Positions 6,995 through 60,008 of a stretch of 64,000 nucleotides of DNA are shown here, one piece after another (positions within the stretch are counted from its first letter, which is position 1; each line of letters starts with the position of its first letter). The notes below the pieces were generated by a model. That model was given only the letters and a program-made list of their open reading frames with translations, did not search any database and had not been told where the DNA came from. A program made the position numbers and the translations under genes. This DNA is from Pseudomonadota bacterium (GTDB lineage Bacteria; Myxococcota_A; Bradymonadia; UBA4248), in assembly GCA_017464085.1 (NCBI GenBank), contig JAFUEE010000163.1, positions 45 to 64,044 on the forward strand. Reading direction: 5' to 3'.

Positions 6995-7076
6995 GGTGGG
7001 CATATCTGGGGGATGAAATCAAGGGTTGTATTTGAAAAGAATCGGCAAGTGCCGGTCTGGTTTTAGAGGAGCAAAT

Positions 7077-10000
7077 ATGAACGTGAAGAAACAGGCGCGT
7101 GCTGCTGCCATATTTTTGGCTTCAGCGCTGGCATTCTATGGCTGTAGTGACAGTTCTGGCTCGGCTTCTGGCGGCGGAAGCGGAGATGCGTGCGACAAAG
7201 GCACGAAATGCGGCGATGTATGCTGCGAGGGCGCATGCGAGGGCGATGTGTGCATCGACACGTCTGCAGACCGCGAGAATTGCGGAGAAGTCGGTCATGC
7301 ATGTGAGTCCGGGGAGAAGTGCGAGTCCGGGGAATGTCAGCCGGAAAAAGTCACGTGCGGCACGGATGAGATGACGTGCGACGGCGTATGCGTCAATGTG
7401 AAGAATGATATCAATCACTGCGGCGGTTGCGGCCAGGCTTGCGAGGACAGCGAGGTGTGCGCGAACGGGCAGTGTTCGACGTCTTGCCCGGAGGGATATG
7501 CGCCGCTGAGCACTGGCGGCTGTGCCGATATGAAGACGGACAGCGACCATTGCGGTGCGGAGAACAACCGCTGCGAGACGAATTCGTTCTGCGAGGATGG
7601 CAGATGCGCGTGCACGGATGGCTGGTATGATTGCGACAATGTCAAGTCGAACGGCTGCGAATCGAACCGCACCTGCAATTTTGCTTGCGCGGAAGGGCTC
7701 AAGACTTGCGGGGAGCATTTGTGCTGCCCTGAAGCGGAAACGTGCTGTGGCGAAGGGTGCTGTGCGGTCGGGACGACCTGTTGTGGCGGCGATACGTGCT
7801 ACGACCTGCAGAATGATGCGGAGCATTGCGGCGGGTGTGATATCGGCTGCCGTGCCTCCGAAATCTGTGTGGAGGGGGCCTGCGTCGAGAATACGACGCC
7901 CTGCGAGACTGAAAATGAGATCGCCTGCTGGGGCAAGTGCACGGCCATTCAGAGCGATGTGAACAACTGCGGCGACTGCGGCAATGTCTGTCGCGAAGGC
8001 TGGTCTTGCGATGAAGGCATCTGCACGCTTCATTGCGAGGATCCGAAGACGCTTTGCGGCGATGCCTGCTATGACTTGTCCAATGACTTTTTGCACTGCG
8101 GAAGCTGCGAGACGGTCTGCGGACCGTCTCAGGTCTGCCAGGACAGCGCATGCGTGGAAATCTCCACGGTCATGCCAGACCTTGCGTGCGATCAGGAGAG
8201 CGGGGAGTCGTTATGCTGGGGCAGCTGTTACAAGCTTCAGGAAGACCGCGAGCACTGCGGCGCGTGCGATAACCGCTGCAATGAGGATCAGGATTGCACG
8301 GAAGGCAGCTGTGTCGATCGGATACCGCCCAACCCATACGGATGCGAGAATCAGGAAATTCTCTGTTATGGCAAATGCACCGATGTGTTCAGCGATGACA
8401 AGAACTGCGGGGCTTGCCTGAATGCATGTGGGGCAAATGAGAAATGCAGCCAGGGTATCTGCGAGATCCAGTGCGGGGAGCTGACGCGATGCGGCAGCAA
8501 GTGCGTGGATATACAGAGCGATGCGAAGTTCTGCGGCAGCTGTGAGACGGCCTGTGCCGATGGCCAGGTATGCACGGAGGGCGGCTGCGCCTGCGCGCCT
8601 GGCCGCTATGAGTGCGACAATGTTGCGGAAAATGGCTGCGAGTCGACGGAAGCGTGCAACTGTGTGCCGGGCTCGAAACAGGCATGCTGGCCTGGCTCCC
8701 CTGAGAATCGCCACAAAGGTATCTGCAAGGATGGCGAACAGGTCTGCGATGCATCCGGGCAGTTCTGGGGACCCTGTGTCGGCGGTGTGCTGCCTTCAAA
8801 AGTCACCTGCTCGGATGACGGCGTTCTCAACGGACTGGACAACGACTGCGACGGCAAGGTGGATGACGTGTGCTACACGACCTGCGACAATATCGCCGGC
8901 GAAAATTCCTACATCGGCTGCGAATATTGGCCCGTCTATCTCGAGAATTACTCCCCGTCCACGAAGAATCACGGGATCGTCATCAGCAACCCCAGCGAGA
9001 CGCGCACGGCGACGGTCAAGATTTTCAACCAGGCAGGCCAGAATGCCAAGCCGCCCAAGCCGCTCCATACGCTGAGCGTCAAGCCTGGCGGCCTTGCGTC
9101 CCTCGTCCTCTCCGAGGGCACGACAAACATGGTGATGAACACTGGCATCCAGGCAAAAGCGTATGTCGTCCGCACGAATACGCCGATCACGGTCTATCAG
9201 TTCAATCCCTGGGGCAAGGCATCCGTGTGCTCCAATGACGCATCGCTGCTGCTGCCAAGGAACGTGCTCGGCAAGAAATATCGCGGCATGACCTGGCAGA
9301 GCGAGAAGAGCTCGCTGCAGTCCTACCTGACTGTCGTTGCCGTGGAGCCCGGAAAGACAGCCGTTTCGTTCGACACGCGCTCGACGATCGTCGCAGGCAC
9401 CGGCGTCGCGCAGCTCGTTGCGAATGCGATCGGCAAATATGTCCTCAACCAGTTCGAGGTGCTCAATATGCTCTCGACGACGAATTCCGAGCAGACGGGC
9501 TCGTACATTGAGGCCGATCGCAAGATCGCCGTGTACGGCGGCTCGCAGTGCTCGTTCATTCCCAATAATATTTACGCATGCGACCATCTCGAGGAGCAGC
9601 TCTTCCCGATTCAGGCATGGGGCAAGTCGTATTTTGCAGTCCGCAGCGTCGCGCTCGGTGACAAGGGCGATTTCTGGCGCATCCTCGCGCATGAGGACAA
9701 CACGCAGGTCACTTTGCCCGCGAAGCTCGGCGGGACGATCACGCTTAAAGCCGGACAGTACAAGGAACTCGTCACGACCGATTCCTTCGAGATCGATGCG
9801 AACAAGCCGATCTTGGTCGGCCAGTTCTTCCCCGGCCTCGACTATCATACGAGCAATCCCAAGCACGAAGGCGATCCGGCATTCATCCTCGATGTGCCCT
9901 ATGAGCAGTATCGCTCGGAATATGCATTCATGATTCCCGACAGCTACCGCGACAACTATGTGACGATTATATCGCCAAAGGACAACGTCATCCACTACAC

Positions 10001-10328
10001 AGGGGAGGGCTATTGCAAGAGCGGCTGCAGCAACCTCGATCACTCCAAGCATGTGATGAACCCGTTCAGCAATGTCGATATCAATTCGCTGACGAGCATC
10101 GTCAAGCCGAAGAACGACAACGACGTTTCCTACACGTCTGAGAAATTGTTCACGGGCTTCAAGGAATTCGGCACGAAGGGCTATGTGTATGGCTATCTCA
10201 AGCTTGACGGCGGCACGCACAAGCTTGTCGGCGAGAAACCGTTCGGCGTCATCGGCTATGGGTTTTATGCATACACGTCCTATGGCTATCCGATCGGCCT
10301 CGACCTGAGGGTCCTCAATACCAACTGA
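7077..10328 (+). CDS. Giant Cys-rich repeat lipoprotein, paralog B
   Basis: ATG at 7077 after an AGAGGAG RBS; signal peptide with lipobox AFYGC. About 12 HCGxCG-type Cys repeats. The C-terminal domain aligns block-for-block with paralog A and ends GYPIGLDLRVLNTN. Confidence 0.8.
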   Translation: MNVKKQARAAAIFLASALAFYGCSDSSGSASGGGSGDACDKGTKCGDVCCEGACEGDVCIDTSADRENCGEVGHACESGEKCESGECQPEKVTCGTDEMTCDGVCVNVKNDINHCGGCGQACEDSEVCANGQCSTSCPEGYAPLSTGGCADMKTDSDHCGAENNRCETNSFCEDGRCACTDGWYDCDNVKSNGCESNRTCNFACAEGLKTCGEHLCCPEAETCCGEGCCAVGTTCCGGDTCYDLQNDAEHCGGCDIGCRASEICVEGACVENTTPCETENEIACWGKCTAIQSDVNNCGDCGNVCREGWSCDEGICTLHCEDPKTLCGDACYDLSNDFLHCGSCETVCGPSQVCQDSACVEISTVMPDLACDQESGESLCWGSCYKLQEDREHCGACDNRCNEDQDCTEGSCVDRIPPNPYGCENQEILCYGKCTDVFSDDKNCGACLNACGANEKCSQGICEIQCGELTRCGSKCVDIQSDAKFCGSCETACADGQVCTEGGCACAPGRYECDNVAENGCESTEACNCVPGSKQACWPGSPENRHKGICKDGEQVCDASGQFWGPCVGGVLPSKVTCSDDGVLNGLDNDCDGKVDDVCYTTCDNIAGENSYIGCEYWPVYLENYSPSTKNHGIVISNPSETRTATVKIFNQAGQNAKPPKPLHTLSVKPGGLASLVLSEGTTNMVMNTGIQAKAYVVRTNTPITVYQFNPWGKASVCSNDASLLLPRNVLGKKYRGMTWQSEKSSLQSYLTVVAVEPGKTAVSFDTRSTIVAGTGVAQLVANAIGKYVLNQFEVLNMLSTTNSEQTGSYIEADRKIAVYGGSQCSFIPNNIYACDHLEEQLFPIQAWGKSYFAVRSVALGDKGDFWRILAHEDNTQVTLPAKLGGTITLKAGQYKELVTTDSFEIDANKPILVGQFFPGLDYHTSNPKHEGDPAFILDVPYEQYRSEYAFMIPDSYRDNYVTIISPKDNVIHYTGEGYCKSGCSNLDHSKHVMNPFSNVDINSLTSIVKPKNDNDVSYTSEKLFTGFKEFGTKGYVYGYLKLDGGTHKLVGEKPFGVIGYGFYAYTSYGYPIGLDLRVLNTN

Positions 10329-10351
10329 TCCTTTGTGGTTTGTGTGGGTGC

Positions 10352-10417
10352 TGCTATCGGCCTTGGCCGATACGCAGCGCAAGGAAGCCGGCTATCTTGC
10401 GATACGCCGGCTTTTTT
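10352..10417 (+). terminator. Two tandem REP-like palindromes; the second ends in T6 (terminator after paralog B)
   Basis: GCTATCGGCC-tt-GGCCGATACGC (about 10352-10380) and GCCGGCTATC-ttgc-GATACGCCGGC (10387-10411), followed by TTTTTT (10412-10417). Confidence 0.6.
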
Positions 10418-10508
10418 ATTGTCCCCGTCGCCCTTGGTTTTCACACAGACGTTGAACACAGCCATAATCAAGGGGGGCATCTGACTCATTGCGTCAACAT
10501 TTGCGTGA

Positions 10509-10608
10509 TTTTTCCGTTTGCAGAAAATGGCCAAAGTGGGCTTACGGAATTTTTCCGTTTGCAGAAAATGGCCAAAGTGGGCTTACGGAATTTTTCCGTT
10601 TGCAGAAG
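10509..10608. repeat. 41-bp direct repeat, about 2.4 copies, each unit containing an inverted repeat TTCCGT...ACGGAA
   Basis: The unit TTTTTCCGTTTGCAGAAAATGGCCAAAGTGGGCTTACGGAA starts at 10509, 10550 and 10591 (the third copy is truncated). It is intergenic, about 200 bp upstream of the first YGPP gene. Confidence 0.8.
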
Positions 10609-10821
10609 GCTCTGTTCTGCATGCGTGGATATGAATTGAGTGCTTTTCGAATCCGTGATGTGTTATCATGCATGCGTGAGAAAGATGGGGAGGTGTAAGC
10701 GCGTGTAAAAAATCTGTGTAAACGGTCATCAGGCTTTTCTGGCATGGTTTTCTGGCCGAAGGTATTTCATCAGAGCCGATGATATGAGCTGCCGGATGAT
10801 GGGCAGCAAGCGGAGGGAGAG

Positions 10822-11247
10822 ATGAAGCGAATAACGCGAGTGATCAGCATGATCAGCGGTGCGGTTGCGTCGCTGTTCACTGTGGGATGTATGAAGCCTG
10901 CCGGGGATGTGTACGGTCCGCCCGACAGTTTCGACAGGTATCGTGAGACGGCCGAGAGCGATCAGGAGGCGCCAGGGGCGGAAGGCGAAGGAAAACTTGA
11001 CCGCGAGCCTGCGCCGGAATTTCCCCAGAGCGAGGAGGAGCCCAAGAAGATTTATGGGCCACCGGAGATGCTGGAGGTCATGCCGGAGCCGCAGGTCATG
11101 CCGGATGCGCCTGACAAGCAGGCGTCTGACAGTCAGGAGGCTGAGGATGAAAAGGCTCAGAAGAGGGACTTTGAGACGCTTAAAGAGATTAATAAGTATC
11201 GCAGGGAAGGCAAGAAGGTCTATGGCCCGCCGCCTGCTCGTAAATAA
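10822..11247 (+). CDS. YGPP-motif acidic lipoprotein 1
   Basis: Signal peptide MKRITRVISMISGAVASLFTVGC (lipobox). Contains VYGPPDSF, IYGPPEML and VYGPPPA motifs and a low-complexity acidic linker. Confidence 0.6.
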   Translation: MKRITRVISMISGAVASLFTVGCMKPAGDVYGPPDSFDRYRETAESDQEAPGAEGEGKLDREPAPEFPQSEEEPKKIYGPPEMLEVMPEPQVMPDAPDKQASDSQEAEDEKAQKRDFETLKEINKYRREGKKVYGPPPARK

Positions 11248-11298
11248 ATAATGATATCAGGAATGTCCTGATGACGATCTGTCGAAGGAGAGTGCGAC

Positions 11299-11778
11299 AT
11301 GAAACGGATCACGCGCGTGATCGGTATGATCACTGGGGCGATTTCTTCATTGTTTGTCATAGGGTGTGACAGGCCTGGGGGGAAGATTTATGGTCCGCCC
11401 GATATGCTGGACGAATATCAGAGAACTGGGGAGATCAAATCGGATGCACTGGATCGTGCGTCTGATGTGTCCGACAAGCCTGAAATCGAAGCGCCTCCGT
11501 CGGCGATCTATGGTCCGCCAGAGATGCTGGATGGCGGCTTGGAAAATGCGGATATTCCAGAGTCTGAGGGCGTGCCTGCCGATATCTATGGCCCGCCTGA
11601 GATGTTCGAGGCGCCCGTGGTGGAAACGGAGCCTTCCGGAGCTTCGATGGCTGCGCAAAATAAGGATGAATCCGAGGATGATGCGGATAAAAAGGTTCGA
11701 GACAAGGACTTTGAGACGCTCAAGAAAGTCAATCACAAGCAGGCAAAGAAAACAATCTATGGTCCGCCTAAGCGGTGA
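11299..11778 (+). CDS. YGPP-motif acidic lipoprotein 2 (paralog of the preceding gene)
   Basis: Near-identical signal peptide MKRITRVIGMITGAISSLFVIGC. Four (I/V)YGPP(D/E)ML motifs and a conserved C-terminal 'KDFETLKK' block shared with gene 1. Confidence 0.6.
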   Translation: MKRITRVIGMITGAISSLFVIGCDRPGGKIYGPPDMLDEYQRTGEIKSDALDRASDVSDKPEIEAPPSAIYGPPEMLDGGLENADIPESEGVPADIYGPPEMFEAPVVETEPSGASMAAQNKDESEDDADKKVRDKDFETLKKVNHKQAKKTIYGPPKR

Positions 11779-11960
11779 TGCTGCAGGGTTCATGCGGCCC
11801 ATGGGGCTGGGGGATTGGTACGAGGGCACCGAATATGGTGGCGCGGCGTATTGGCAATGCCAATAGCCGCGCCCGCGACACGTATGCGCCGCAGGCGCAT
11901 AGGGGCGCGTTAAAGACATGATACGGAACGTTTACTGACGCAGGGATATGAGGTGCAGTC

Positions 11961-12620
11961 ATGAAAGGGATAAAGTTTACATATTGCGGCGCAGATGGCG
12001 AAAAACATTCATTTTTATTTGACCGTTCAGTGACGGAAGCATGGATCGGGGCTGGTCCGGAATGCGCGATCTGCGTGTCGGGCAAGTCGGTTCTGGCGCG
12101 TCATGCGAGGCTGTTTTGGCGGAATGGTCATGTCTTTGCAGCCTGTGTGCCGGGATGCGACCGGACGCTTGCGCCCAAAGTCGATGGGATGAGGCTTGAT
12201 GAGGGCGGGGATGAAGTGTTTCTGTGCAGCGAGCTTGTGGTGGGGGACGTGGTGATTTTCGCGTGCGCGATGGAGGAGGGCTCGCAGGCGTCCGAGGCGG
12301 AAGCTCAGCCGCAGCCGGAGCCTCCATGCTGTATTTATGGCCCGCCGTCACGGCTTTCCTGCCCGAAGCCGACTGAAAGAGATGAGGAGGAGAATGCGCG
12401 CGTAATGAAGATGCTGCAGGAGATTCGGGATACGCCGATGGTGACTTATGGCCCGCCTCAGGCATTTGCTGACGCTTGGATAGGTCAGGGCATGAAGCCG
12501 GTGCCTGCGCAGGCGTCCGGGGATGAAGGGCGAGGCAAAAGATCCGGCAGACCCCGCAGAAGGCCTGCGCAGGCGTCCGGGGATGAAGGCGAAGGCCGGT
12601 CGGGAGACGGAAAGAAATAG
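11961..12620 (+). CDS. FHA-domain protein with YGPP motifs
   Basis: No signal peptide. The N-terminal FHA-like region ends in '...KVDGMRL', the same ending as the FHA domain at 21739. Then CCIYGPPSRL and MVTYGPPQAF, followed by a duplicated 'PAQASGDEG.G' block encoded by a 26-bp direct repeat. Confidence 0.5.
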   Translation: MKGIKFTYCGADGEKHSFLFDRSVTEAWIGAGPECAICVSGKSVLARHARLFWRNGHVFAACVPGCDRTLAPKVDGMRLDEGGDEVFLCSELVVGDVVIFACAMEEGSQASEAEAQPQPEPPCCIYGPPSRLSCPKPTERDEEENARVMKMLQEIRDTPMVTYGPPQAFADAWIGQGMKPVPAQASGDEGRGKRSGRPRRRPAQASGDEGEGRSGDGKK

Positions 12621-12662
12621 GCTTGCAGAGGCCGCGTTGCGGCTCCCTTTGGATGTTTGTGC

Positions 12663-12760
12663 CGGCAGTCCGTCAGACTGCCGATGAAAAAAATGCATTC
12701 AGCGGCTTGTCATTGGAAAGGATGTGCATACTCTGGGAAGCCGTTTGACGGAGGCAGCCG
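12663..12760 (+). promoter_or_regulatory. groES leader with two perfect hairpins; no CIRCE element
   Basis: CGGCAGTC-cgtca-GACTGCCG (12663-12683) and GGAGGCA-gccgaa-TGCCTCC (12741-12760) lie just upstream of the groES RBS (AAGGAGAA, 12785-12792). I could not find a TTAGCACTC-N9-GAGTGCTAA (CIRCE) match. Confidence 0.4.
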
Positions 12761-12800
12761 AATGCCTCCGCATTTTCATTCATCAAGGAGAATAAGCATT

Positions 12801-13088
12801 ATGTTGAAACCATTGAACGACCATATTGTTGTGCAGCGACTTGAGCAGGAATCCGTGAGCAAGGGCGGGATCATCATTCCTGACACGGCGAAAGAAAAAC
12901 CCGCGAAGGGCGTTGTGATGGCAGTGGGTTCTGGCAAGCGCGCAAAAGACGGTTCGCGCATCGCGATGGATGTCAAGGCCGGTGATGTCGTTCTGTTTGG
13001 CAAATATTCAGGGTCCGAAGTGAAGCTTAACGGCAAGGAATATATGATCCTGCGCGAGGATGATGTGCTTGCGGTTGTCGAAGAATAA
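12801..13088 (+). CDS. groES: Co-chaperonin GroES
   Basis: 95 aa, MLKPLNDHIVVQRLEQE...GDVVLFGKYSG...; ATG at 12801 follows an AAGGAGAA RBS. Confidence 0.95.
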   Translation: MLKPLNDHIVVQRLEQESVSKGGIIIPDTAKEKPAKGVVMAVGSGKRAKDGSRIAMDVKAGDVVLFGKYSGSEVKLNGKEYMILREDDVLAVVEE

Positions 13089-14759
<1,671 letters not shown>

Positions 14760-15531: not shown

Positions 15532-16233
15532 TTAAAGTTCCTGGCAGGTGCAGAGCCCGTCGGTGCAGATGGCCAGTGCGCCTGGTTTGAATTTGTCGCA
15601 GATTTTGCTGCATCTGGCGGCTGCGTCGTCGCCGGTGCATGCGAGCGTTTCGCGGCTGAGGCACTGGCACTTGTCGTTCTGGCAGACGGACATGACGGCG
15701 CCGATGGCCTGGCATGAGACTTCGCAGTCTGCGTCGGACTTGCAGTCGTTCGACTGGCATTCGCATGTGTTATTTTGGCAGATTGCAGTCGAGTTTGGCC
15801 GATAGATGTCGCAGATTGCGGCGCAGGCGGAGGAGATGCCTGAGCCTTCGCAGGAGAGTTCGGATGCCTGAATGCAGCTGCAGATGCCGTCGTTGCAAGC
15901 GGTCATGGCAGCATCCGGGCATTTGGCATCGCAGTCGGTATTTGCTGAACACTCGCGTGCCTGGCATTCGCAATAGCCTTCTGCGCAGACGCCCTTTGTT
16001 TCGGGCTGGTATGTGGCGCAGATCGTGTCGCATTTGTCTTCTGCGGTGCCGGTGCATGCGAGCGCGTCTTTCGAGATGCATTTGCAGGCATTGTCCTGGC
16101 AGTCGAACATGATGGTATTGAGATCGTAAGCGCGGCAGAAGACCTCGCAGTCTGCTTTGGCTTTGCAGAGGCTGTTGTCGTCACAGGCGGTCAGGAGAAG
16201 AAGGGGGATGAGGGGCAGCAGAAGTTTTTTCAT
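15532..16233 (-). CDS. Secreted Cys-rich lipoprotein with four roughly 57-aa modules
   Basis: Signal peptide MKKLLLPLIPLLLLTAC (lipobox). Four repeats of the pattern C-x-A/S-x-DC-EV/x-C-x...-C-x-N/D-x-C-x-C, about 35 Cys in 233 aa. Confidence 0.7.
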   Translation of the reverse strand: MKKLLLPLIPLLLLTACDDNSLCKAKADCEVFCRAYDLNTIMFDCQDNACKCISKDALACTGTAEDKCDTICATYQPETKGVCAEGYCECQARECSANTDCDAKCPDAAMTACNDGICSCIQASELSCEGSGISSACAAICDIYRPNSTAICQNNTCECQSNDCKSDADCEVSCQAIGAVMSVCQNDKCQCLSRETLACTGDDAAARCSKICDKFKPGALAICTDGLCTCQEL

Positions 16234-21738: not shown

Positions 21739-23826
21739 GTGGACAAACAGACCGGAATTGCATTAAAACGGCATCAGGTTTCCTTTTGCGCGAACTTTGA
21801 GAACGCGAACTATGAAGAAGGAGAGAAGTCCTTGGTAAAGTTAGTTTACAGCGATCAGAGTGGTTGGGAGAAATCGGTAGAGGTCAATGAGCTCAATCCG
21901 ACGATAATGATTGGACGCAATCCGGACTGTGCGGTTCAGACCTCGAATGCTTCAGTATCGCGCGTTCATGCAATGGTGACCTGGAAGGGCGGGAAGGTTT
22001 ATGTTCAGGATCCGCCGAACAGCCATCCGACGAACGGGACGAAAGTCGATGGCATGCGTCTCCAGCCAGGCCAGGTGCTTGAGCTGATGGCAAACAGCGA
22101 GCTTTTGTGCGGCAATTTTGCGATACGCGTGGAGAGCGAGGGGCCAGGCGACCGCGTGTCACACATGGGGGATCAGGGGGCGCTTCCGCAGGGGGGCCCG
22201 ATGTATCAGCAGGGATATAATGGCTATCAGCCGCAGGGGCGTGGCGCGGCAGGCTGGATGCAGCCGGGGCAGGCGCAGCCGAATATACCGCAGCCGGGCG
22301 CGATGATACCGCCGCCGCAGCCTACTCAGATGCCGCAGCAGCAGCCGGTGATGCCGCAGCAGCAACCGGTGATGCCGCCGCAGCAGCCGGTGATGCCGCC
22401 GCAGCCGGCCCAGATGATGCCGCCGCAGCAGCAGGCGGCACAGAATCCGCCGGATTTGAACCGGAAGTCGCGGAGCAACAATGCGCGCGGCTATATGCAG
22501 GGGCGCGATCGCGGCGCGATGTCGGCGGGAGTCATTCCGCATGGCGGCGATGAGGCGCTCAGGCTTCAGGAAGAGATATCTCGACTTCAGGAAGAGAATT
22601 CCCGCCTGCAGGCCGACAATCAGCTTGCTCGCCAGGAGATTGAGGAGCTTCGCTCCAACGGGACTGGAGAGAATTCCGTGAAGGAGCTTCAGGACAAGCT
22701 GGAGGAGCGCGACCAGATATTGACGGATTATGAGCGCCGCATCGAATACCACGAGACAGTCGTGACTGGCCTCAAGGATATGATCGACAAGCTCAAGGAG
22801 CAGATCGACCACCAGAAAGACCAGTATCAGGAATGCCGCCGCGACCTTGTGGCGTCTCAGGAAGAGGCGGAGTCGCTCCGTATGGAACTGTCGACGCTCA
22901 AGGAGACGCTTGATTCGAAGGGGATGGCGACCTCGAATGCTGAGACGACGATCGCGGACTTGAAAGTCCAGCTTCAGCAGAAGAACCGTCTTCTTTCGGA
23001 TCTTCAGCGCGATCTGGATATCGCGCAGTATTCGTGCAAGGAAGAGCGCGACAATGTGGAGCACCTGAAGGAGAATGTGGACAAGCTGAATGCCGAGCTT
23101 GAGGAAAGCCAGCGTCGCAACCGCGACATGAAGAAGGTCGTGGAGCAGCATGAGATGATGTTCAATGAGCTCAAGGGCAACCTGAACGACCGTGCGCGTG
23201 AGATTCGGCAGCTTCAGGATGCGCTGAGAAAACAGGGCGGCGGAGACAACGCGGCGCTGATGCAGGAGCTTGCGCAGGTGCGCGACAGCCTGACGAAGCG
23301 CAACAGCGAGGCGGAGATGCTCCAGAAGCAGCTCGAGGAGGCGCTCAAGGCGGCATCTGGCGCGGAGGCGGCGAATGTGACGCTCAAGGCGCGCGTGTCG
23401 GAGCTTGAAAAGGATGCGGGCGGCGATGCCTCCTTGAAGGCGCGAGTCAGCGTCCTGGAACGTGAGAAAGCGGCGCTCGAAGAGAAGCTTTCCGCCGGAG
23501 CCGGTTCGGGCGGCGGCGTGGACAGCGGCCTGATGGAGCGCATCCGCGGGCTTTACAGCGACATGAATGATGTTGTGAGCCAGTGGCGCGAAGATCTGGG
23601 CATACTTGATTCCAGCCTTTCCGAGCTTCAGACAGTGTTCAAGGCGTATGTGAAGATCGACGTGTCGAAGCTTCAGGAAAAGGATCGCAAGAGGTTGGAC
23701 AAGATTGCCGATCTCGATCCTCGCCTGATTTTTGATGACATCGGGAATTCGCTCTATTCGAGCCAGAATTCATTAGCGTCGATTAAAGAGAAATTGAAAG
23801 ATTTGAGGGGTGCGCTTCAGGCATGA
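21739..23826 (+). CDS. FHA-domain protein with a Pro/Gln-rich linker and a long coiled-coil
   Basis: GTG start. FHA core 'IMIGRNPDCAVQ...VSRVHAMV...KVDGMRL'; the (QQQPVMP)n repeat is encoded by a 21-bp tandem repeat (about 22327-22395). The C-terminal roughly 400 aa has heptad-rich, SMC-like coiled-coil character. Confidence 0.75.
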   Translation: MDKQTGIALKRHQVSFCANFENANYEEGEKSLVKLVYSDQSGWEKSVEVNELNPTIMIGRNPDCAVQTSNASVSRVHAMVTWKGGKVYVQDPPNSHPTNGTKVDGMRLQPGQVLELMANSELLCGNFAIRVESEGPGDRVSHMGDQGALPQGGPMYQQGYNGYQPQGRGAAGWMQPGQAQPNIPQPGAMIPPPQPTQMPQQQPVMPQQQPVMPPQQPVMPPQPAQMMPPQQQAAQNPPDLNRKSRSNNARGYMQGRDRGAMSAGVIPHGGDEALRLQEEISRLQEENSRLQADNQLARQEIEELRSNGTGENSVKELQDKLEERDQILTDYERRIEYHETVVTGLKDMIDKLKEQIDHQKDQYQECRRDLVASQEEAESLRMELSTLKETLDSKGMATSNAETTIADLKVQLQQKNRLLSDLQRDLDIAQYSCKEERDNVEHLKENVDKLNAELEESQRRNRDMKKVVEQHEMMFNELKGNLNDRAREIRQLQDALRKQGGGDNAALMQELAQVRDSLTKRNSEAEMLQKQLEEALKAASGAEAANVTLKARVSELEKDAGGDASLKARVSVLEREKAALEEKLSAGAGSGGGVDSGLMERIRGLYSDMNDVVSQWREDLGILDSSLSELQTVFKAYVKIDVSKLQEKDRKRLDKIADLDPRLIFDDIGNSLYSSQNSLASIKEKLKDLRGALQA

Positions 23827-23925
23827 AGCCTGAGCGGCCTATGGGTTATGGGTGCGCTGTGTCGCATGAGTCATGGGTGCAGCGCGAGCCTGATTTGTGA
23901 AATATTAGACGGGAGCAGACGGATT

Positions 23926-25479
23926 ATGGAAGGAATTCGGGCGAATGTTTCTTCAGAAGAAGAAATCGAGTATTTGATTCGAGCGAGATATCCGCTTATG
24001 TATGTCACAAGTACGGAAGAGGAGCGCGTGGAGAAGAATCTGCGCATCATTTGCGAGCGCCGCAACCGTCGATTTGTGACGTGGTCCTGCACAGAAGGCT
24101 TCCAGGGCGGCGACGGAGACACGTTCAATGATATCCGTGACCCTCAGCGTGCGATGGAGCATATTTTCCGTTATGAGAACGACGCGCTGTTCTGCATGAG
24201 GGATTTTCATCCGTATCTTTCGGATCCGCAGGTCACGCGCCGTCTTCGCGATCTCAGCCGCGAATTCAAGACGAGCCGATACAAGAAGCACGTGCTCCTT
24301 CTGAGCCCGACGTTCAAGATTCCGGTCGAGCTTGAGAAAGAGATGAGCGTGATTGATTACGATCTCCCGAACAGGACGGTCATCAATGAGCTTGTCCTTC
24401 AGGTTCTCAAGAGCGTTCCCGATGAGCTTTGCCAGCAGGTCCGCAACGATCCTCTTTTCCGTGAGAAAGTCGTTGAAGCGGCGCTCGGCCTGACTGCTGT
24501 CGAGGCATCGAACGTGTTTTCCAAGTCTCTGATCATCAAGAAAGACTTTGATATCGAGACGATTGTCGATGAGAAGAAGAATCTGATCCGCAAGAACGGG
24601 TTGCTTGAGTTCTATCAGTCGGATCTGAAGCTTCGCGACATCGGCGGCCTTGAGATTCTCAAGAGCTGGCTCAAGACGCGTAACCTTGCGTTCAGCTCGA
24701 AAGCGCGCGAGTTCGGTCTGCCGCTTCCGAAGGGCATTCTTCTTCTCGGTCTTCCCGGCTGCGGCAAGTCTCTGACTGCAAAATCGGTCGGCGCGCTCTG
24801 GAAGATGCCGCTTCTCCGCCTGGATGTCGGCAAGGTCTTTTCATCGCTCGTCGGTTCGTCAGAAGAGAACATGCGCAAGGCCATTGCAACAGCAGAAGCG
24901 GTCGCGCCGTGCATTCTCTGGATGGATGAGCTTGAAAAAGGCTTCTCCGGCACGAAGTCTTCCGGCCAGACGGATGGCGGTACGGGCGCGCGTGTTTTCG
25001 GTTCGTTCATCACGTGGCTTCAGGAAAAGACGAGCCCTGTATTCGTTATCGCGACGGCAAACGACGTGTCGATGCTTCCGCCGGAACTTCTCCGTAAAGG
25101 CCGTTTTGATGAGATTTTCTTCGTCGATCTTCCGAGCCCCGCAGAGCGCAAGACAATCATCGAGATTCATATCATCAAGAAGAACCGCAAGGTTGCTGAT
25201 TTTGATATTCCTCGTATCGTTGCGGCCACACAGGGCTTTTCAGGGTCTGAAATCGAGCAGGCGATTGTATCCGCACTGTTCGATGCCTATGAGGCGAAAA
25301 AAGATATCGATACGGAAAGCGTGATCCGTTCATGCAACGAAATCATCCCGCTCTCCTATCAGATGAAGGAACGCATCGACTACATGCGTGACTGGGCGAA
25401 GAGCCGCGCTCGCCGTGCCTCTCTCGATGAAGAAGGCGCGCATGAAGAGGACAAACAGATCCGTCATCTTGAGATGTAA
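23926..25479 (+). CDS. Ycf46-like AAA+ ATPase (N-terminal roughly 280-aa domain plus one AAA module)
   Basis: Walker [12 protein letters not shown], Walker [10 protein letters not shown], sensor/arginine-finger region; ATG at 23926 after a GGGAG RBS. The architecture and the N-terminal '[13 protein letters not shown]' block resemble cyanobacterial and plastid Ycf46 (from recall). Confidence 0.8.
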
Positions 25480-49787: not shown

Positions 49788-50002
49788 GTGGTTATTAATA
49801 TAATTAATATTAATATTAATAATATTAATTAAGTGTGTCCAGAGGCGTTGATAAATCGTTTTGTATGTAAAAAAAACAGTAGAGTTACTGTTGATTTATG
49901 CAATTTAATATACTATATACTTTATTGATGGTTCTCATCGCTAGATATTGATGTCAGTTGAGTGATGAGATTATCTCTTACTTTTATAAGGAGAGAAAAA
50001 AT

Positions 50003-50416
50003 ATGATTTTCGATGGTTACAAAATAAAAATTGGTGAGGTGGTAATCGGTAAAAAGGTCGTGCCAATATTTGTTAAAGGCGGTGAACATAACCCACCACA
50101 TGTTCATGTCGATGTGGACAAGAAATTTGGACTTGTCGAGATTAAGAATGGTAATTTGTACAGAGGGAATCTAACGCCTAAACAATTGGATGTCGTATCT
50201 GGTTGGCCTAAGAAGAATAGGAAGAAAGCAAAAGAAGTTTGGAATTCGATAAATCCGTCGCTACGACTTGATTCCTTGTCGCGAATGATTAGCACACTTG
50301 AATATCAGATGGCGCATGTCAAACGATTAAGGCAGAGTGGGGGAAGAACACAATTAGTTAAAGCGATGTGTCAGTTGGCTCGTACATTGAATATGGTTAC
50401 AAAATTAGGAGGCTGA
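50003..50416 (+). CDS. DUF4160-family protein
   Basis: 'GEHNPPHVHV' is the DUF4160 hallmark. ATG 50003 after an AAGGAGAG RBS. Low-GC codon usage. Confidence 0.6.
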   Translation: MIFDGYKIKIGEVVIGKKVVPIFVKGGEHNPPHVHVDVDKKFGLVEIKNGNLYRGNLTPKQLDVVSGWPKKNRKKAKEVWNSINPSLRLDSLSRMISTLEYQMAHVKRLRQSGGRTQLVKAMCQLARTLNMVTKLGG

Positions 50417-50417
50417 T

Positions 50418-50798
50418 ATGGGCAAAATCATATATGCACCCAAAAGAGAGGGGAAAGAACGTAAAATTTGGCTTAAATCATTTGCGCAATACAAAGAATG
50501 GAAAGAATGTGTGGACTATCATCACAACATTGTTTCCGTGGAAGTCATTGAGCCGTTAGTTCTTCGCGTGACGTTTGATGATGGCAAAGTAACCAGATAT
50601 CATGTCATCGATACAGCTAGAAAATCTGGTGGGTACATACCGGATAACATTGAGATACTGAGTGAAGACCCGGAGCTGTTTAACAGTATGAAAGTTACAT
50701 GCTGGGACGTTGACTGGACGGAAGATATTGGTCTTGGCTGTGAGGAGTTGTATCACAGTGGCGAAGAACTCGTGCCGCCCAGGGCGAAAAATCATTGA
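50418..50798 (+). CDS. DUF2442-like protein (partner of DUF4160)
   Basis: Starts 1 nt after the upstream stop, with an AGGAGG RBS. The core 'VSVEVIEPLVLRVTFDDGKVTRYHV' fits the DUF2442 beta-rich pattern. It carries a roughly 30-aa N-terminal extension. Confidence 0.55.
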   Translation: MGKIIYAPKREGKERKIWLKSFAQYKEWKECVDYHHNIVSVEVIEPLVLRVTFDDGKVTRYHVIDTARKSGGYIPDNIEILSEDPELFNSMKVTCWDVDWTEDIGLGCEELYHSGEELVPPRAKNH

Positions 50799-50844
50799 TG
50801 GCGTTTGTTATTATGTGATAAAATTAAAAAGCTGTCTGGTAGTT

Positions 50845-50876
50845 GGCGTATTGCTTTGCAATACGCCGCGTTTTTT
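50845..50876 (+). terminator. Fully symmetric REP-like palindrome followed by T6 (terminator of the DUF4160/DUF2442 pair)
   Basis: GGCGTATTGC-ttt-GCAATACGCC, then gcg and TTTTTT. Confidence 0.65.
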
Positions 50877-50926
50877 CGGTGATAGCCTAAACTTATGGCT
50901 AGGTGATTTTAGGAGTGAGCAAATTC

Positions 50927-53884
50927 ATGAATAAGAGTGGCAAACGAGTATTAGTCTTGGCGTTGTGTGCTGGAATCATCGGGTTTTCTGGCTGTGCCAA
51001 AAAAAGTGGCGATTTGAATGTACAGGATCCTGCAAATGAGGCGAACGCTGCTGGACAGGAGGCTGTTGCTTCAGGAAAGCTGAGTGATACCGATGGAAAG
51101 CCTTGCACATCTCACAAGATGTGTTCGCCTGGTTCTGCCTGTGTTCAGGATAAATGCGTGAGGATTGATGCAATTTCGTGTAAAACGAATCTCGACTGTC
51201 CGGAATTTGATAAGTGTAGCAATGGGCATTGCGTGGGATGTGTATCCGATAACGATTGTACAAAAGATTTTACATGCAACAGTCATGAGGTATGTGTGCC
51301 GAAACATTTTGGTGTTCCGCTTTGCAGTTCATCTATGGATTGTAACAATGGCGAAGTCTGTCGCGATGGCATGTGTCAGGCTTTTTGTACGAGTTCTTGG
51401 GGGGATTGCGAAGATGGCGCTACATGCATATCCGAGAATAATATGCTTATCGGGGTGTGTCTCAATCAGAATATCATAAGCCATAGCTCAATGTGTGGTG
51501 CTGAGGATTGTGAATATCAATGCGGTGAGGGGAAATTCTTATCAAATGGGGTTTGTTATCCTGAAAATTGCAGATCAGATTCTGATTGTGATGAAGAAAA
51601 ATATTGTGCAGATAACACCTGCAAGAAAAAAGAGTGTGAATCTGATGATGACTGTAGCGAAGGTGTTTGTCGGCATTTTGTCTGTGGATGCAATACGAAT
51701 GCTGACTGTTCTGAAGAACAATATTGTGATAAGGGAAAATGTCAGGACTATCAGTGTGAAACCGATGACGACTGTTCGTTCTATGATATGGTATGCCATG
51801 ACCGAAAGTGTGTAGGTTGTCGGAGTGATAATGACTGTGAAGAAGGCAAACACTGCAGGGAAATATATTCGTATTCATCAAGAAGCTGTGGGAATCACGG
51901 CTGTAAGTTTGGTGGAAAGTCAGAAAAGCCAGACAGTGTGAAATGTGTGGAATGTAAGGAAGATAAGGATTGTCCGAGTGAACGGTCACATTGTGATTTA
52001 ATGGAAAATGTCTGTGTTGCATGTATGACGGATAGTGATTGTCAGGAGGGATATGAATGCGAGATAGATCATACATGCGTTAAAGATGAGAATGCACAGC
52101 CTCGTAAACAGGAGCAGACATGTTCGGTCAATGCAGATTGCGGAGAAGGAAATTATTGCTCGTATGAGCAAAAATGTAGCCCGATGGCGAAAAAATGCGC
52201 TTCAGATAGCGATTGCGAGGATGGTGTGTCCTGTAATCGACATGGTTATTGCAGTGCAAAACCGATCAAATTTTGGGGATTTCCGTTGCCCGAAATATGT
52301 TCGACAGATGAGCATTGCGGGCGTATGGGCGGATCTGTGTGCACAGCGCGCTTGAGAAAGGTCTATGATCCTGTGAAAGGTGAAAACATAAACGGACACG
52401 CCTGTGGCTATGTATGTACCAAGTCAGCGGATTGTGAAAAGGGCGAAACTTGTATATTTGGGGAATGCGCTTTAGATTATGAGCGTCATTTCTGTGATGC
52501 AACATCGGACTGTCCGAGCGGATATGAATGCAATACATTCTATCATGAATGCATTACGCCCAAGAAGGTCGATGAGACAATGGATATGGAAAAAGCCATG
52601 AGTCTCATGAATGATATGAAGAAGTATTTCCATGTGGCGAAGACACCTGTTGAATGTATGCAAAACAGTGAGTGCAAGGATGGTTTGGTCTGTTTGGCCG
52701 ATGGTAGTTGTGGATGTACAACAAATGAACAATGTCCAGATGGCAATATGTGCAATGCACAATTATCATGTGAATGTATTTCTGACAACGGTTGTCATCC
52801 CGGTTTTACCTGTGTGGAAAAGAAGTCAAGCAGTATGAGTTCGAGTCGGGTATGTGTTTGTGGTAGTGATGACGTATGCGGCGAAAATAAGATTTGTAAT
52901 ATGGAGGGCGTATGTGTTGACAGCAACGACGTGCGTGAAACGTATGCACGAGCCTTGGATTATCATTATGGCTATGTCCATGTTGCCGATCTTAAGAAAG
53001 CGGTTGAATACTATCAGAAATCTGAATCGCTTGGAAATTCATTTGCAACCATACAGTTGGCTCTGATTGATTTTGAAAAAACCAAGGATGCTAAAAAGTG
53101 GAATGATAAAGTTAAGAGTGCACTTGATACTATTAATGCGCAAGAAAATTCATCTGACACTTCTTCGGATGATCCAATCACATCGTTATTCAAATCTTTG
53201 TTGAGAAACAAGAGCCATATTAATTATTTGAAAGCCATGCTCATGATATATGGTATTGGGGTAAATAAGGATGTGAACAAGGGTATCCAGACGCTGACGG
53301 AGGCTTCGGAGCATTATTCTGTATTTGCCAGAGCTGAACTTGTCGATTTATATGTTTCGGGGAATTTCGTTCCTAAGAATCTGGAAAAGGCGAAGAAAAT
53401 TCTCGAAGATTCTCAGGGTAATTATGTTAATCCAGAATCAGGATATGGCTACTACAGAATTGCCAAAATACTTGCTAAAACGCCCAAACTTATGGGGGAT
53501 AAAGCGTCTGAAAAGTTCGTGGAATACTTGGCTCAAGCTTCATCCATGGGTCTTCTTGAAGCAAAATATCAGATTTCTGCATTTTATGGCGTAAATGATT
53601 TGAGACGTTGGGATCTTGATCGGGATGCCGATAGCAAAAAACTATTAGAATATGCTAAAAAAATGGGACACCCCGAAGCCGCAAAGCGACTTGAAATCGT
53701 GAAGACTTTTAGCGTCGAGGATGGCGATAGCGATGCATCTAAAGACGTGCTTTTGAAAGAGGCAAAACAAGGGAATGCGGTTGCCTGCTATTTACTACAG
53801 AAAAAATATAAAGACAGTAAATGTGCTCAGGCGCTTTCAAAACAGGGGTTGCTTGTCGGTGATTATCTTATGATGCTGAAATAG
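50927..53884 (+). CDS. Secreted Cys-rich repeat protein with C-terminal Sel1/TPR-like repeats (low-GC gene)
   Basis: ATG 50927 after an AGGAGTGAG RBS; signal and lipobox (FSGC). About 20 modules of C-x-SD-x-DC-x5-C-x4-C-x-C. C-terminal Sel1-like units (…GYVHVADLKKAVEYYQKSESLGN…, …IYGIGVNKDVNKGIQTLTEASEH…). Confidence 0.75.
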   Translation: MNKSGKRVLVLALCAGIIGFSGCAKKSGDLNVQDPANEANAAGQEAVASGKLSDTDGKPCTSHKMCSPGSACVQDKCVRIDAISCKTNLDCPEFDKCSNGHCVGCVSDNDCTKDFTCNSHEVCVPKHFGVPLCSSSMDCNNGEVCRDGMCQAFCTSSWGDCEDGATCISENNMLIGVCLNQNIISHSSMCGAEDCEYQCGEGKFLSNGVCYPENCRSDSDCDEEKYCADNTCKKKECESDDDCSEGVCRHFVCGCNTNADCSEEQYCDKGKCQDYQCETDDDCSFYDMVCHDRKCVGCRSDNDCEEGKHCREIYSYSSRSCGNHGCKFGGKSEKPDSVKCVECKEDKDCPSERSHCDLMENVCVACMTDSDCQEGYECEIDHTCVKDENAQPRKQEQTCSVNADCGEGNYCSYEQKCSPMAKKCASDSDCEDGVSCNRHGYCSAKPIKFWGFPLPEICSTDEHCGRMGGSVCTARLRKVYDPVKGENINGHACGYVCTKSADCEKGETCIFGECALDYERHFCDATSDCPSGYECNTFYHECITPKKVDETMDMEKAMSLMNDMKKYFHVAKTPVECMQNSECKDGLVCLADGSCGCTTNEQCPDGNMCNAQLSCECISDNGCHPGFTCVEKKSSSMSSSRVCVCGSDDVCGENKICNMEGVCVDSNDVRETYARALDYHYGYVHVADLKKAVEYYQKSESLGNSFATIQLALIDFEKTKDAKKWNDKVKSALDTINAQENSSDTSSDDPITSLFKSLLRNKSHINYLKAMLMIYGIGVNKDVNKGIQTLTEASEHYSVFARAELVDLYVSGNFVPKNLEKAKKILEDSQGNYVNPESGYGYYRIAKILAKTPKLMGDKASEKFVEYLAQASSMGLLEAKYQISAFYGVNDLRRWDLDRDADSKKLLEYAKKMGHPEAAKRLEIVKTFSVEDGDSDASKDVLLKEAKQGNAVACYLLQKKYKDSKCAQALSKQGLLVGDYLMMLK

Positions 53885-53897
53885 GCTAGTAAGCACA

Positions 53898-53947
53898 TGC
53901 ATTGAGGTTTTTCTGGCTTTGGTTGTATAGAACAGGAAACCTCAATG
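53898..53947. terminator. Long-stem hairpin between convergent genes (candidate bidirectional terminator)
   Basis: GCATTGAGGTTT ... AAACCTCAATGC, a 12-bp perfect stem with a 26-nt loop. Confidence 0.45.
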
Positions 53948-54040
53948 CTATGTGTATTGTTTGCAAAAATGGCAAGCGCGTGGTTGCGTAATACCTGTTG
54001 TCATCTTTAGAATAAGTTTCTGGTTGATATCGAGCATCCG

Positions 54041-55150
54041 TTAATTTGTAATCTGTATTTCCTCGCGATAGGGCGACCACCAAGGTTCGGTATTCTTGGG
54101 CGCATTTAAGTCAATGATATCTCCAATGACTGGCGTTAAGAGATGATACGGCTTTTCTTTAGACGCAAGATATATATTTTCGAGGGGATCATACCAGTTG
54201 TGGTTGGAAAGTGTGAATTTTGCGTGGTGATAGGTCATGACATATTGGGGAGCTAATATATCTATCGCTTTGACGAGACCATCGGGCAGCAGATGTATCT
54301 GATTCCAGGATTGGTTATATTGTCCATTCTCCATGATGGCGAAATCGATAGATTTGAATTGCTCGCTAATTTTTTGGAAATGATCTCCAAAACCTGTGTC
54401 GCCAGATATATATATATTTCTTGGGCCGGCAATCATAAAGGATGCCCAGAGCGTCGGATTGCCCGACAGACGCCCGGAAAAATGGCGCGCTTCGAGCGCA
54501 TAGAGTTTTGTATCTTTGTCGATATCGATAGATTCGCCCCAGTCAAGCTCGTGTATTTTTTCTAATGGATAGCCCCAATACTCAAAGTGCTGGCCGACGC
54601 CAAGGCCGCATACGACATGCTTGACGCGGTCTTTGAGTTCGAGAACGGTCTTGTAGTCGAGATGATCCCAATGGTCATGCGTGATGATGAGATAATCGAT
54701 GTCGGGAATGTCCTCGGCGGTGTAAATTTCAGTGCCCTTGTATGGCTTGAGAGAAAAATTGATCGGAAATCTGTAGTTAAAGACTGGGTCTATCAGATAT
54801 CGGATGCCGTCTTGTTGTATTAATACCGAGGAATGACCGAACCAGATGACGAGATCTCTGTCGCGCTCGAGAGTTTTGAGGTCTGTTTTGATGGCTGGCA
54901 GCGGCTTTGAGGGGGCTTTTTCGACGCGGCCGGTTGGAGGTTCACGCATTTGAGATGAATCGCCTGATGTAAACATCTTGGAGGGCGGATCATTCTGAAA
55001 AGCGCCATCCTTATAATTCGGTGATTGCTGAATGCGCGCAAGGCGCTTCCCTTTGGGACGTTGGCCGAGCTCTTTCCACATGAGGATGCCGATAATCGTG
55101 AGGAAAAGGACGATGAGGAGGAGCAGGGCGAGGAGTATTTTTTTGATCAT
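54041..55150 (-). CDS. Membrane-anchored MBL-fold metallo-hydrolase
   Basis: N-terminal TM helix (ILLALLLLIVLFLTIIGILMW) and the HxHxDH motif 'ITHDHWDHLD'. Confidence 0.75.
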   Translation of the reverse strand: MIKKILLALLLLIVLFLTIIGILMWKELGQRPKGKRLARIQQSPNYKDGAFQNDPPSKMFTSGDSSQMREPPTGRVEKAPSKPLPAIKTDLKTLERDRDLVIWFGHSSVLIQQDGIRYLIDPVFNYRFPINFSLKPYKGTEIYTAEDIPDIDYLIITHDHWDHLDYKTVLELKDRVKHVVCGLGVGQHFEYWGYPLEKIHELDWGESIDIDKDTKLYALEARHFSGRLSGNPTLWASFMIAGPRNIYISGDTGFGDHFQKISEQFKSIDFAIMENGQYNQSWNQIHLLPDGLVKAIDILAPQYVMTYHHAKFTLSNHNWYDPLENIYLASKEKPYHLLTPVIGDIIDLNAPKNTEPWWSPYREEIQITN

Positions 55151-57154: not shown

Positions 57155-57211
57155 TGGAGATAGGTATTGAGCCATCAATGATGGCTAAGGTGTGTAAGAC
57201 AAGGAGGATGT

Positions 57212-59155: not shown

Positions 59156-59170
59156 TTATAGGAGGCGATT

Positions 59171-59987: not shown

Positions 59988-60008
59988 AGCGATGGCTATA
60001 TATAATTA

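Follow-up and report, generated by a model that had tools for sequence, protein, structure and literature searches.

Why does the same short peptide motif occur both in proteins that seem to leave the cytoplasm and in one that seems to stay there? The question is raised by three consecutive genes in a stretch of 64,000 nucleotides (GenBank assembly GCA_017464085.1, contig JAFUEE010000163.1), which we call the window and whose sequence matches a ruminant gastro-intestinal metagenome scaffold. The three open reading frames (ORFs), here named A, B and C, encode two predicted lipoproteins and a protein with a predicted FHA fold, and all three carry repeated copies of Tyr-Gly-Pro-Pro (YGPP). We found that YGPP is the center of a longer motif that occurs in four phyla, and that outside of the window's lineage the gene carrying it is usually followed directly by a gene for a radical S-adenosylmethionine (rSAM) enzyme of the SPASM type. 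We think that the motif may be a tag that such an enzyme recognizes and modifies.

The motif in the window

A sequence-only reading of this DNA had noted that YGPP recurs three, four and two times in the three genes. Six-frame translation of the 64-kb window gave the same counts for A, B and C, which together hold nine of the ten copies in the whole window; the tenth is the Walker A loop (YGPPGTGKT) of an AAA+ protein at 39357 on the reverse strand. From base composition we would expect 0.46 copies in six frames. When the residues of A, B and C were shuffled, the mean was 0.012 copies and none of 100,000 shuffles attained nine. The three proteins contain 13 tyrosines, of which 9 belong to the motif, and all nine copies read [IVT]-Y-G, which is the X-Tyr-Gly form of a splice motif. 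Because shuffles and base composition both predict far fewer copies than we see, the motif in A, B and C is non-random and is not an effect of Pro/Gly composition.

The three ORFs are co-directional on the forward strand, at the same coordinates as in the sequence-only reading, and are followed by groES and groEL. One could still suppose that Pro/Gly-rich coding in a high-GC genome produced the motif by chance or composition, an objection which that reading had itself raised, or that the ORFs are not genes. We found nothing in favor of this. The gene calls for A, B and C are identical in independent assemblies, the motif is kept in homologs from many metagenome-assembled genomes (MAGs), and together with the counts and shuffles these homologs already refute the idea. 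The other objection, that the three genes might have unrelated orthologs elsewhere, also falls away, as the orthologs retain both the motif and the gene pairing.

The motif does not belong to a described family, as had been suspected. When A, B and C, along with eleven related YGPP proteins, were scanned with the Pfam and NCBIfam models, no family came up, and the searchable literature gave no paper that describes the motif, the matches being names of NMR pulse sequences or unrelated eukaryotic peptides. The only earlier trace in these databases is an NCBIfam "hypothetical equivalog" for a Bacteroidales enzyme, to which we return below.

The lipoproteins A and B

ORF A (10822-11247, forward strand) encodes 141 amino acids with YGPP at nt 10912-10923, 11053-11064 and 11221-11232, and ORF B (11299-11778, forward strand) encodes 159 amino acids with YGPP at nt 11389-11400, 11509-11520, 11587-11598 and 11758-11769. 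The two proteins are paralogs (44% identical) and begin alike, with MKRITRVI, a hydrophobic stretch and [TV/VI]GC. The signal peptides are MKRITRVISMISGAVASLFTVGC in A and MKRITRVIGMITGAISSLFVIGC in B, each with the lipobox Cys at residue 23 (nt 10888-10890 in A and 11365-11367 in B). A lipoprotein signal should start with a basic n-region, continue with a hydrophobic h-region and reach a lipobox, [LVI][ASTVI][GAS]C, whose Cys falls at about residue 15-35; on inspection by eye both proteins have all of these. Kyte-Doolittle hydropathy (15-residue window) peaks at 2.0-2.2 at residue 7 in both, and the lipobox Cys is invariant across 15 homologs. Orthologs or paralogs of A are P0005, P0010, P0011 and P0013 (P and L numbers are our labels for proteins and loci).

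In both proteins the first motif lies a few residues past the Cys, the spacers are acidic, and the internal copies are preceded by (F)PES(E/D)GxP. Both end in DFETLK(K/E)(V/I)N (DFETLKEIN in a predicted helix at nt 11167-11193 of A, DFETLKKVN at nt 11707-11733 of B) and then a basic terminus with K-K-x-[IV]-YGPP, making KDFETLK(K/E)(V/I)N...KK(V/I)YGPP their common C-terminus. The AlphaFold2 (AF2) model of B, built on the 15 homologs, has no globular fold (pTM, the predicted TM-score, is 0.15) and its only helices are at residues 2-18 (the signal peptide), 35-43 (after motif 1) and 127-150 (DFETLKK). On these grounds we regard A and B as acidic and probably disordered predicted lipoproteins. 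The degree of identity, the similar signal peptides and the common C-terminus bear out the earlier view that they are paralogous lipoproteins.

The FHA-fold protein C

ORF C (11961-12620, forward strand, 219 amino acids) carries two copies of YGPP. Its N-terminus is not hydrophobic and the sole hydrophobic peak lies inside the FHA core, so it has no signal peptide. Residues 1-105 (nt 11961-12275) are modeled by AF2 as a beta-sandwich with a predicted local distance difference test (pLDDT) score above 90. The best Foldseek matches in the PDB are the FHA domains of OdhI, GarA, CT664 and Ki67, at a target-normalized TM-score of about 0.8, and the 50 best listed are all FHA domains or the FHA-like cytoplasmic domains of YscD-type proteins of type III secretion systems (4d9v, 6uid). 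By sequence alone, the PDB gave only a spurious match of this N-terminus to the RING domain of RNF4. Hydropathy, AF2 and Foldseek all agree with the sequence-only reading that C lacks a signal peptide and starts with an FHA domain, and we are confident of the predicted fold of what should be a cytoplasmic protein.

The Pfam FHA model (PF00498) matches C only in part (residues 29-59, E 0.006, 17.5 bits against a cut-off of 20.7) and scores 47 bits with the FHA protein encoded from 21739. These two proteins are 32% identical (BLASTP E 2e-11), and the string KVDGMRL that had been noticed earlier is indeed common to both. In FHA domains the conserved phosphothreonine-binding residues are Gly-Arg, Ser-x-x-His and Asn-Gly. 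Aligned with its relatives, C reads IGA, LARHA and LAPKVDG where the paralogs read IGR, VSRxHA and TNGxKVDG; the Gly and His are retained, and the canonical Arg, Ser and Asn were not found in the residue alignment of its FHA domain. With these residues replaced in C and kept in its paralogs, phospho-dependent binding by C is doubtful, and we do not carry forward the suggestion that it places the motif in a phospho-peptide-binding context. The gene at 21739-25479 (forward strand) encodes a protein of 695 amino acids, in which a Gln/Pro-rich linker joins a canonical N-terminal FHA domain to a long coiled coil, and directly after it is a gene for an AAA+ ATPase of 543 amino acids.

The tail of C (nt 12276-12620) holds both motifs, CCIYGPPSRL (nt 12336-12347) and MVTYGPPQAF (nt 12447-12458). 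It is modeled as disordered apart from a helix between them at residues 140-156 (about nt 12378-12428). ARVMKMLQEIR (nt 12396-12428) is part of this helix, which lies ahead of the second motif. The tail has the same module, a helix and then (V/T/I)YGPP, as A and B.

Conservation in the window's lineage

B has 18 homologs, all hypothetical proteins; most come from MAGs named "Proteobacteria bacterium" or "Myxococcota bacterium", and one is from Lachnospiraceae. A word-indexed search with C returned only C itself; its relatives came from an exhaustive HMMER scan of 1.84 billion representatives, which gave only 16. Several of these are small FHA proteins with (I/G)YGPP tails. P0144, P0146, P0148 and P0140 have tails like that of C, and P0142 has the same architecture, is 36% identical to C and keeps both motifs with the helix between them. 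The genes for P0144 and P0148 are on short contigs, and their surroundings gave no further information. Among the 15 homologs of the lipoproteins (35-60% identity) the spacers diverge, while Y-G-P-P and its flanking positions persist. Since the spacers diverge and the motif persists, and since P0142 keeps both motifs and the helix, the motif is under selection, and such strong conservation shows that it has a function in this lineage.

The genes also stay together. A strain variant of the window retains all nine motifs. RGIG7731, whose GroES is 100% and GroEL 98.5% identical to those of the window (the latter over its first 522 residues), has the order two Cys-rich giants, three YGPP lipoproteins, FHA gene, groES and groEL. 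Its FHA gene encodes a giant multi-FHA protein, split over two contigs, that ends with LIYGPPEML, the last FHA domain, a helix and VTYGPPPML. At L082 (human gut, GC 46%) and L029 (cattle colon), a gene for a YGPP lipoprotein of 121-123 amino acids overlaps the start of an FHA-YGPP gene of the P0142 kind, and the remaining neighbors are unlike those of the window. The conserved unit of this uncultured, gut-associated "Myxococcota" lineage is thus one to three acidic, disordered lipoproteins followed by a cytoplasmic FHA-YGPP protein. As groESL and the Cys-rich giants are neighbors only in close relatives, we consider them incidental and dropped them as functional partners.

Two proteins from these searches are unusual. 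P0141 (86 amino acids) is 77% identical to the tail of C. Its first motif has degenerated to RRIYRSPAHL and its second, MVTYGPPQAF, is intact; the protein may be a truncated or frameshifted copy from another strain. P0015, a 251-amino-acid lipoprotein of the window's lineage (L012, 553-7651), carries YGPP, YGMP and YGIP variants. Its gene is flanked by one for a PrmC methyltransferase and one for a Ser/Thr protein kinase-like protein, and a second kinase gene is found further upstream, a context that hints at a link with Ser/Thr signaling, in line with the FHA partner.

The motif across phyla

The wider motif has 11 residues, P-x-x-[IV]-Y-G-P-P-[ED]-M-[LF]. We scanned one genome per species from 185,579 GTDB species with the pattern IYGPPEM[LF] and obtained 60 loci from four phyla, nearly all in rumen or gut MAGs; about six look like chance matches in unrelated environmental bacteria. 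A scan of metagenomes gave eight more. The carriers are Firmicutes (Lachnospiraceae, Ruminococcus and other Clostridia), Bacteroidota (Bacteroidales, including Prevotella), Spirochaetota (Spirochaetales) and the window's lineage.

Carriers come in several types. Acidic lipoproteins carry 2-5 copies, DUF805 membrane proteins carry 3-5 in C-terminal tails that would be extracellular by the positive-inside rule, and some small proteins with the motif lack a signal peptide (MKLFGKK...CIYGPPEML). Some are whole enzymes: Bacteroidales NUDIX/MutT-like proteins have a single N-terminal copy, Ruminococcus purine nucleoside phosphorylase (PNP) has three copies in an N-terminal extension, and Lachnospiraceae dihydropteroate synthase (FolP, or DHPS) has a single C-terminal copy. 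With these fused NUDIX, PNP and DHPS proteins, Pfam and NCBIfam matched the enzyme families and nothing else.

We made motif logos from 59 instances of the window's lineage and 102 instances next to rSAM genes. The search pattern forces one copy per locus, and most copies are not forced. The two logos agree on P at -4, I/V at -1, Y-G-P-P, E at +4, M/W at +5, L/F at +6 and D/E at +7.

A radical SAM/SPASM gene beside the motif

All-against-all clustering of the ORFs at these loci gave a single recurrent neighbor, an rSAM/SPASM protein of about 360 amino acids. Its gene is directly downstream of the YGPP gene, on the same strand and often overlapping it, and was present in 22 of the 60 GTDB loci, in L013 and in four of the eight metagenome loci. 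We excluded from the assessment the loci of the window's lineage (11), the enzyme fusions (12), the probable chance matches (6) and those loci whose downstream flank is shorter than 1.3 kb (4). This leaves 27 assessable loci, none of them from Myxococcota, and 22 of these have the gene. Two Lachnospiraceae DUF805-YGPP genes (L016 and L061) are exceptions to the linkage, with no rSAM gene in the 2-4 kb downstream.

The best NCBIfam match of these enzymes is TIGR04133 ("rSAM_w_lipo"), with E values of 1e-80 to 1e-91 and more than 100 bits above the next family. At one Bacteroidales locus, L059, the enzyme is a true member (561 bits against the cut-off of 425), and its gene follows three tandem lipoproteins with the motifs VYGSPEII, CYYGPPP, EIYGPPEML, CIYGGPDL and LYGSPDL. 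L058 has a TIGR04103-like rSAM gene after a YGPP protein (237 bits against a cut-off of 725), and the other cassette enzymes score 114-130 bits with TIGR04103. An rSAM profile search of public data found at least 5,333 clusters at E <= 1e-40; among the best 120 matches, all that carry an organism name are Firmicutes, which is uninformative on the window's lineage.

In Clostridia the cassettes (L022, L024, L028, L041, L053, L080) have three genes in a row. The first encodes a YGPP protein of 60-105 amino acids without a signal peptide, the second a YGPP lipoprotein rich in Thr and Ser, and the third the rSAM/SPASM enzyme. The small cytoplasmic protein may serve as substrate, activator or decoy. 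This mix of compartments mirrors that in the window. The observation that one motif stands in both a periplasmic or surface context and a cytoplasmic one therefore extends to cassettes of other phyla, and the mix of exported and cytoplasmic carriers is general.

Proposed explanation

We propose that an rSAM/SPASM enzyme of the TIGR04133 type would recognize and modify the 11-residue motif. Tyr-directed rSAM enzymes, among them the XYG spliceases, suggest by analogy that the reaction would probably take place at the invariant Tyr-Gly. The tag would be read in the cytoplasm, ahead of Sec/Lol export, and cytoplasmic carriers would be modified in place, because rSAM enzymes are cytoplasmic and oxygen-sensitive and need S-adenosylmethionine and reduced Fe-S clusters. 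Reading before export would in turn explain how the same motif can sit on lipoproteins, membrane-protein tails and cytoplasmic FHA, NUDIX, PNP and FolP proteins without the need for two partners. Splicing, a Tyr cross-link or another reaction would all be conceivable; we do not fix the chemistry to splicing because the partner enzymes are mostly not splicease-like. Tyramine splicing would cost each motif C8H9NO (-135 Da) and leave an alpha-keto-beta-amino amide. The sequence-only reading had suggested a peptidyl-prolyl isomerase or the FHA proteins as the common partner, and the evidence points to the rSAM/SPASM enzyme instead.

For this window we put the probability that the motif is such a recognition or modification tag at roughly 45%, a figure that is held down because no rSAM gene was seen in the window's lineage. 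We rate the same explanation higher for the Firmicute, Bacteroidales and Spirochaete cassettes. The motif, its conservation, the operon and the linkage to the rSAM gene across phyla are observed; that the enzyme acts on the motif, and by which chemistry, is inferred. Several points weigh against it. No rSAM homolog was found in the 64-kb window (there is no ORF with CxxxCxxC, and tblastn was empty), and none turned up further along the scaffold, as far as we fetched it past the window, or in the loci of this lineage that the search covered (about 14). The tags fused to NUDIX, PNP and FolP are likewise not adjacent to an rSAM gene. The Firmicute enzymes score 270-306 bits with TIGR04133, against its cut-off of 425, and they fall outside of the splicease clade. 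TIGR04133 itself is a "hypothetical equivalog", and we found no published chemistry for it. Precursors of other maturases can be scattered, away from the enzyme gene. In the window's lineage, then, either the enzyme would be encoded elsewhere in the genome, or the motif would have a role that is independent of rSAM enzymes, such as docking to a partner.

A broader form of the proposal is one that we hold more tentatively. In it, the motif would be a natural portable tag for an abundant gut family of rSAM/SPASM enzymes that installs a Tyr-centered modification, possibly splicease-like backbone editing or a cross-link. Its targets would be surface lipoproteins, the tails of membrane proteins and proteins of the cytoplasm, with FHA-fold proteins and housekeeping enzymes among them, and in the window's lineage the tagged set would have grown into the operon of lipoproteins and FHA protein.

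A docking motif for some conserved partner (a polyproline-binding domain, a peptidyl-prolyl isomerase, or a chaperone or targeting factor) seems to us an unlikely explanation, although it has points in its favor. The rSAM enzyme of other phyla would then be an add-on, and in this lineage one partner would bind the lipoproteins and the FHA protein alike; alternatively, the FHA protein would serve as a cytoplasmic decoy. Docking would suit the strong conservation of the motif in a lineage with no rSAM gene seen nearby, the conserved pairing of lipoprotein and FHA protein, and the multivalent repeats in disordered acidic chains, which are typical of docking motifs. However, to meet carriers in the cytoplasm as well as in the periplasm or at the surface, a single partner would have to act before export, and no candidate binder recurs nearby: the rSAM gene is the sole recurrent neighbor, and groESL and the Cys-rich giants adjoin the YGPP genes only in close relatives.

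If the motif instead acted through its physical properties, as an aromatic/proline "sticker" or a rigid polyproline II or turn spacer, it would need no partner and could serve in any compartment. The predicted non-globular nature of A and B (pTM 0.15) and the regular spacing of motifs in acidic spacers would fit, but the pattern is shared by four phyla and, of its 11 residues, four are invariant and at least four more are strongly preferred, which makes it over-specific for such a role. Single copies also stand as terminal tags on folded enzymes, and the operonic linkage to the rSAM gene would be left unexplained, so we consider this improbable. That same linkage speaks against an effect on translation, which we think has very little chance of being right. 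Polyproline sequences stall ribosomes in a manner that depends on elongation factor P (EF-P), and G-P-P-[ED] could in principle tune expression this way, since each copy contains Pro-Pro, mostly followed by Glu or Asp. Stalling would not explain the invariant Tyr-Gly, the Pro at -4, the Ile/Val at -1 or the Met and Leu/Phe at +5/+6. Resemblances to sites of Pro-Pro endopeptidases, to EPIYA-like motifs of host tyrosine kinases and to degrons were set aside as misfits with the conserved positions or the ecology.

The upstream repeat and other features of the window

Upstream of A, Tandem Repeats Finder reports an intergenic tandem repeat at 10508-10607, with a period of 41 and 2.4 copies that are 100% identical; this is one base off the 10509-10608 given in the sequence-only reading, which had taken the repeat for a possible operator. 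The window has 2.4 copies and the strain variant L011, with a near-identical groEL, has 1.4. The repeat is absent from the corresponding intergenic region of RGIG7731 (L007), a congener with a 100% identical GroES, and that region retains the upstream terminator hairpins and the ribosome-binding site. Because the copy number varies between strains and the repeat is absent in RGIG7731, it is a recent, strain-variable duplication and not a conserved operator. A scan of 10300-13200 for promoters and terminators gave nothing above the shuffle expectation, and by eye we saw no CIRCE-like element upstream of groES. At 10340-10418, downstream of a Cys-rich gene, are two successive hairpins, the second followed by a T-run. 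They are almost identical in RGIG7731, unlike the rest of the intergenic region, and are probably the terminator of that gene.

The genes directly upstream of the YGPP genes, at 7026-10328 (forward strand) and the one preceding it, encode two giant Cys-rich repeat proteins of about 950-1100 amino acids with CGxCxxxC-type repeats, a Pfam match to IgGFc_binding and a weak one to Stig1. They are present in the window and RGIG7731 (L006/L007, 1315-7737) and not in more distant relatives. GroEL (13134-14759, forward strand) has a Cys-rich C-terminal tail; the usual GroEL tail consists of Gly-Gly-Met repeats. A 233-amino-acid lipoprotein at 15532-16233 (reverse strand) is made of repeated Cys-rich modules (C..C...C...C) and has no Pfam match on record. 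GC content is 0.42-0.48 at about 50000-60000, compared with 0.55-0.59 elsewhere in the window, and this region may be a horizontally acquired island. Past the window on the same scaffold (L084, 2146-4182), a PBP_dimer/transpeptidase gene next to ftsL has a PASTA domain, which is typical of Gram-positive bacteria and unusual in a genome labeled Myxococcota/Proteobacteria.

What a modification tag would mean

If the proposal is right, the motif defines a substrate class for a large rSAM/SPASM family of rumen and human-gut anaerobes, and chemistry of the kind known from peptides that are synthesized ribosomally and modified after translation (RiPPs) is natively used on full-length, anchored and even housekeeping proteins. 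This would be a widespread new bacterial protein modification and not a peptide natural product. It makes testable the question, raised by engineered splice tags, of whether bacteria natively edit proteins through short leader-independent tags. Protein engineers would also gain a candidate tool, a naturally optimized tag of 11 residues together with its enzyme. For the window's organism, the analysis identifies an unannotated conserved operon of one or more lipoproteins and a degenerate FHA protein. Should the rSAM link fail in this lineage, a four-phylum, habitat-restricted and undescribed linear motif would still be worth following.

Comparison with known systems

Among small FHA regulators, GarA and OdhI are the closest to C in that each is a single FHA fold with a disordered tail, and both are among its best structural matches. 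In C, however, the tail is C-terminal, YGPP motifs take the place of the phospho-Thr site, and other residues stand where canonical phosphothreonine-binding FHA domains have Arg, Ser and Asn.

The TIGR04133 system is the nearest to A and B. The L059 lipoproteins carry [AC][IV]YG[SPG]P[ED]-hydrophobic motifs, and A and B, lipoproteins too, carry this motif as well, in the form hydrophobic-Y-G-x-P-[ED]. The window differs in adding an FHA-domain member and in that no adjacent rSAM gene was found in it or in the roughly 14 loci of its lineage. The partner family TIGR04134 probably carries YG-x-P; among the YGPP proteins tested there was no match to TIGR04134. TIGR04103 probably corresponds to PlpX.

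The YGPP proteins do not look like classical RiPP precursors, with a leader, a core and a dedicated protease and exporter, because they carry Sec or lipoprotein signals, DUF805 membrane domains or whole enzyme domains. In the ORF clustering of the loci, no protease or exporter/transporter gene recurs beside the YGPP cassettes. The arrangement of a small gene with a repeated motif and an rSAM/SPASM gene directly downstream is shared with the ranthipeptide/PapB, GDL-motif, ACGX and His-Xaa-Ser systems. These families and those of PqqE, MftC and RrrB type are among the weaker NCBIfam matches of the cassette enzymes, and the Tyr-directed SPASM enzymes PqqE, MftC and RrrB have been reviewed (PMC8326336). 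The difference from SPASM RiPPs is that YGPP proteins are anchored proteins (lipoproteins, DUF805) or whole enzymes and not leader-core peptides.

The likeness to spliceotides goes furthest. PlpXY spliceases act on XYG in a leader-independent tag of 10-11 residues, GPIRP-L-YG-LPI, which works at the N-terminus, at the C-terminus, internally and when multiplied, and an alpha-helix of the leader or of the Y protein docks on or activates the enzyme (PMC10533398, PMC5995677, PMC11414181). We found no PlpX-clade splicease with a substrate, and no rSAM gene is in the window. The enzymes beside YGPP genes are mostly TIGR04133-like, with only that of L058 being TIGR04103-like and below the cut-off, and the YGPP proteins have their own export signals and neither a Nif11/NHLP leader nor a Y protein. 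What the two systems have in common is an rSAM/SPASM enzyme, a short segment with X-Tyr-Gly and Pro (LYGLPI and [IV]YGPPEM), a tag of 10-11 residues, and its use in repeated copies and at terminal or internal positions. A helix also precedes the terminal motif in the AF2 models of B and C, and A has the same kind of helix sequence (DFETLK) as B. We propose the YGPP proteins as a motif-defined substrate family of SPASM maturases, unusual in that its substrates are anchored or full-length proteins and include an FHA-fold partner in a conserved operon.

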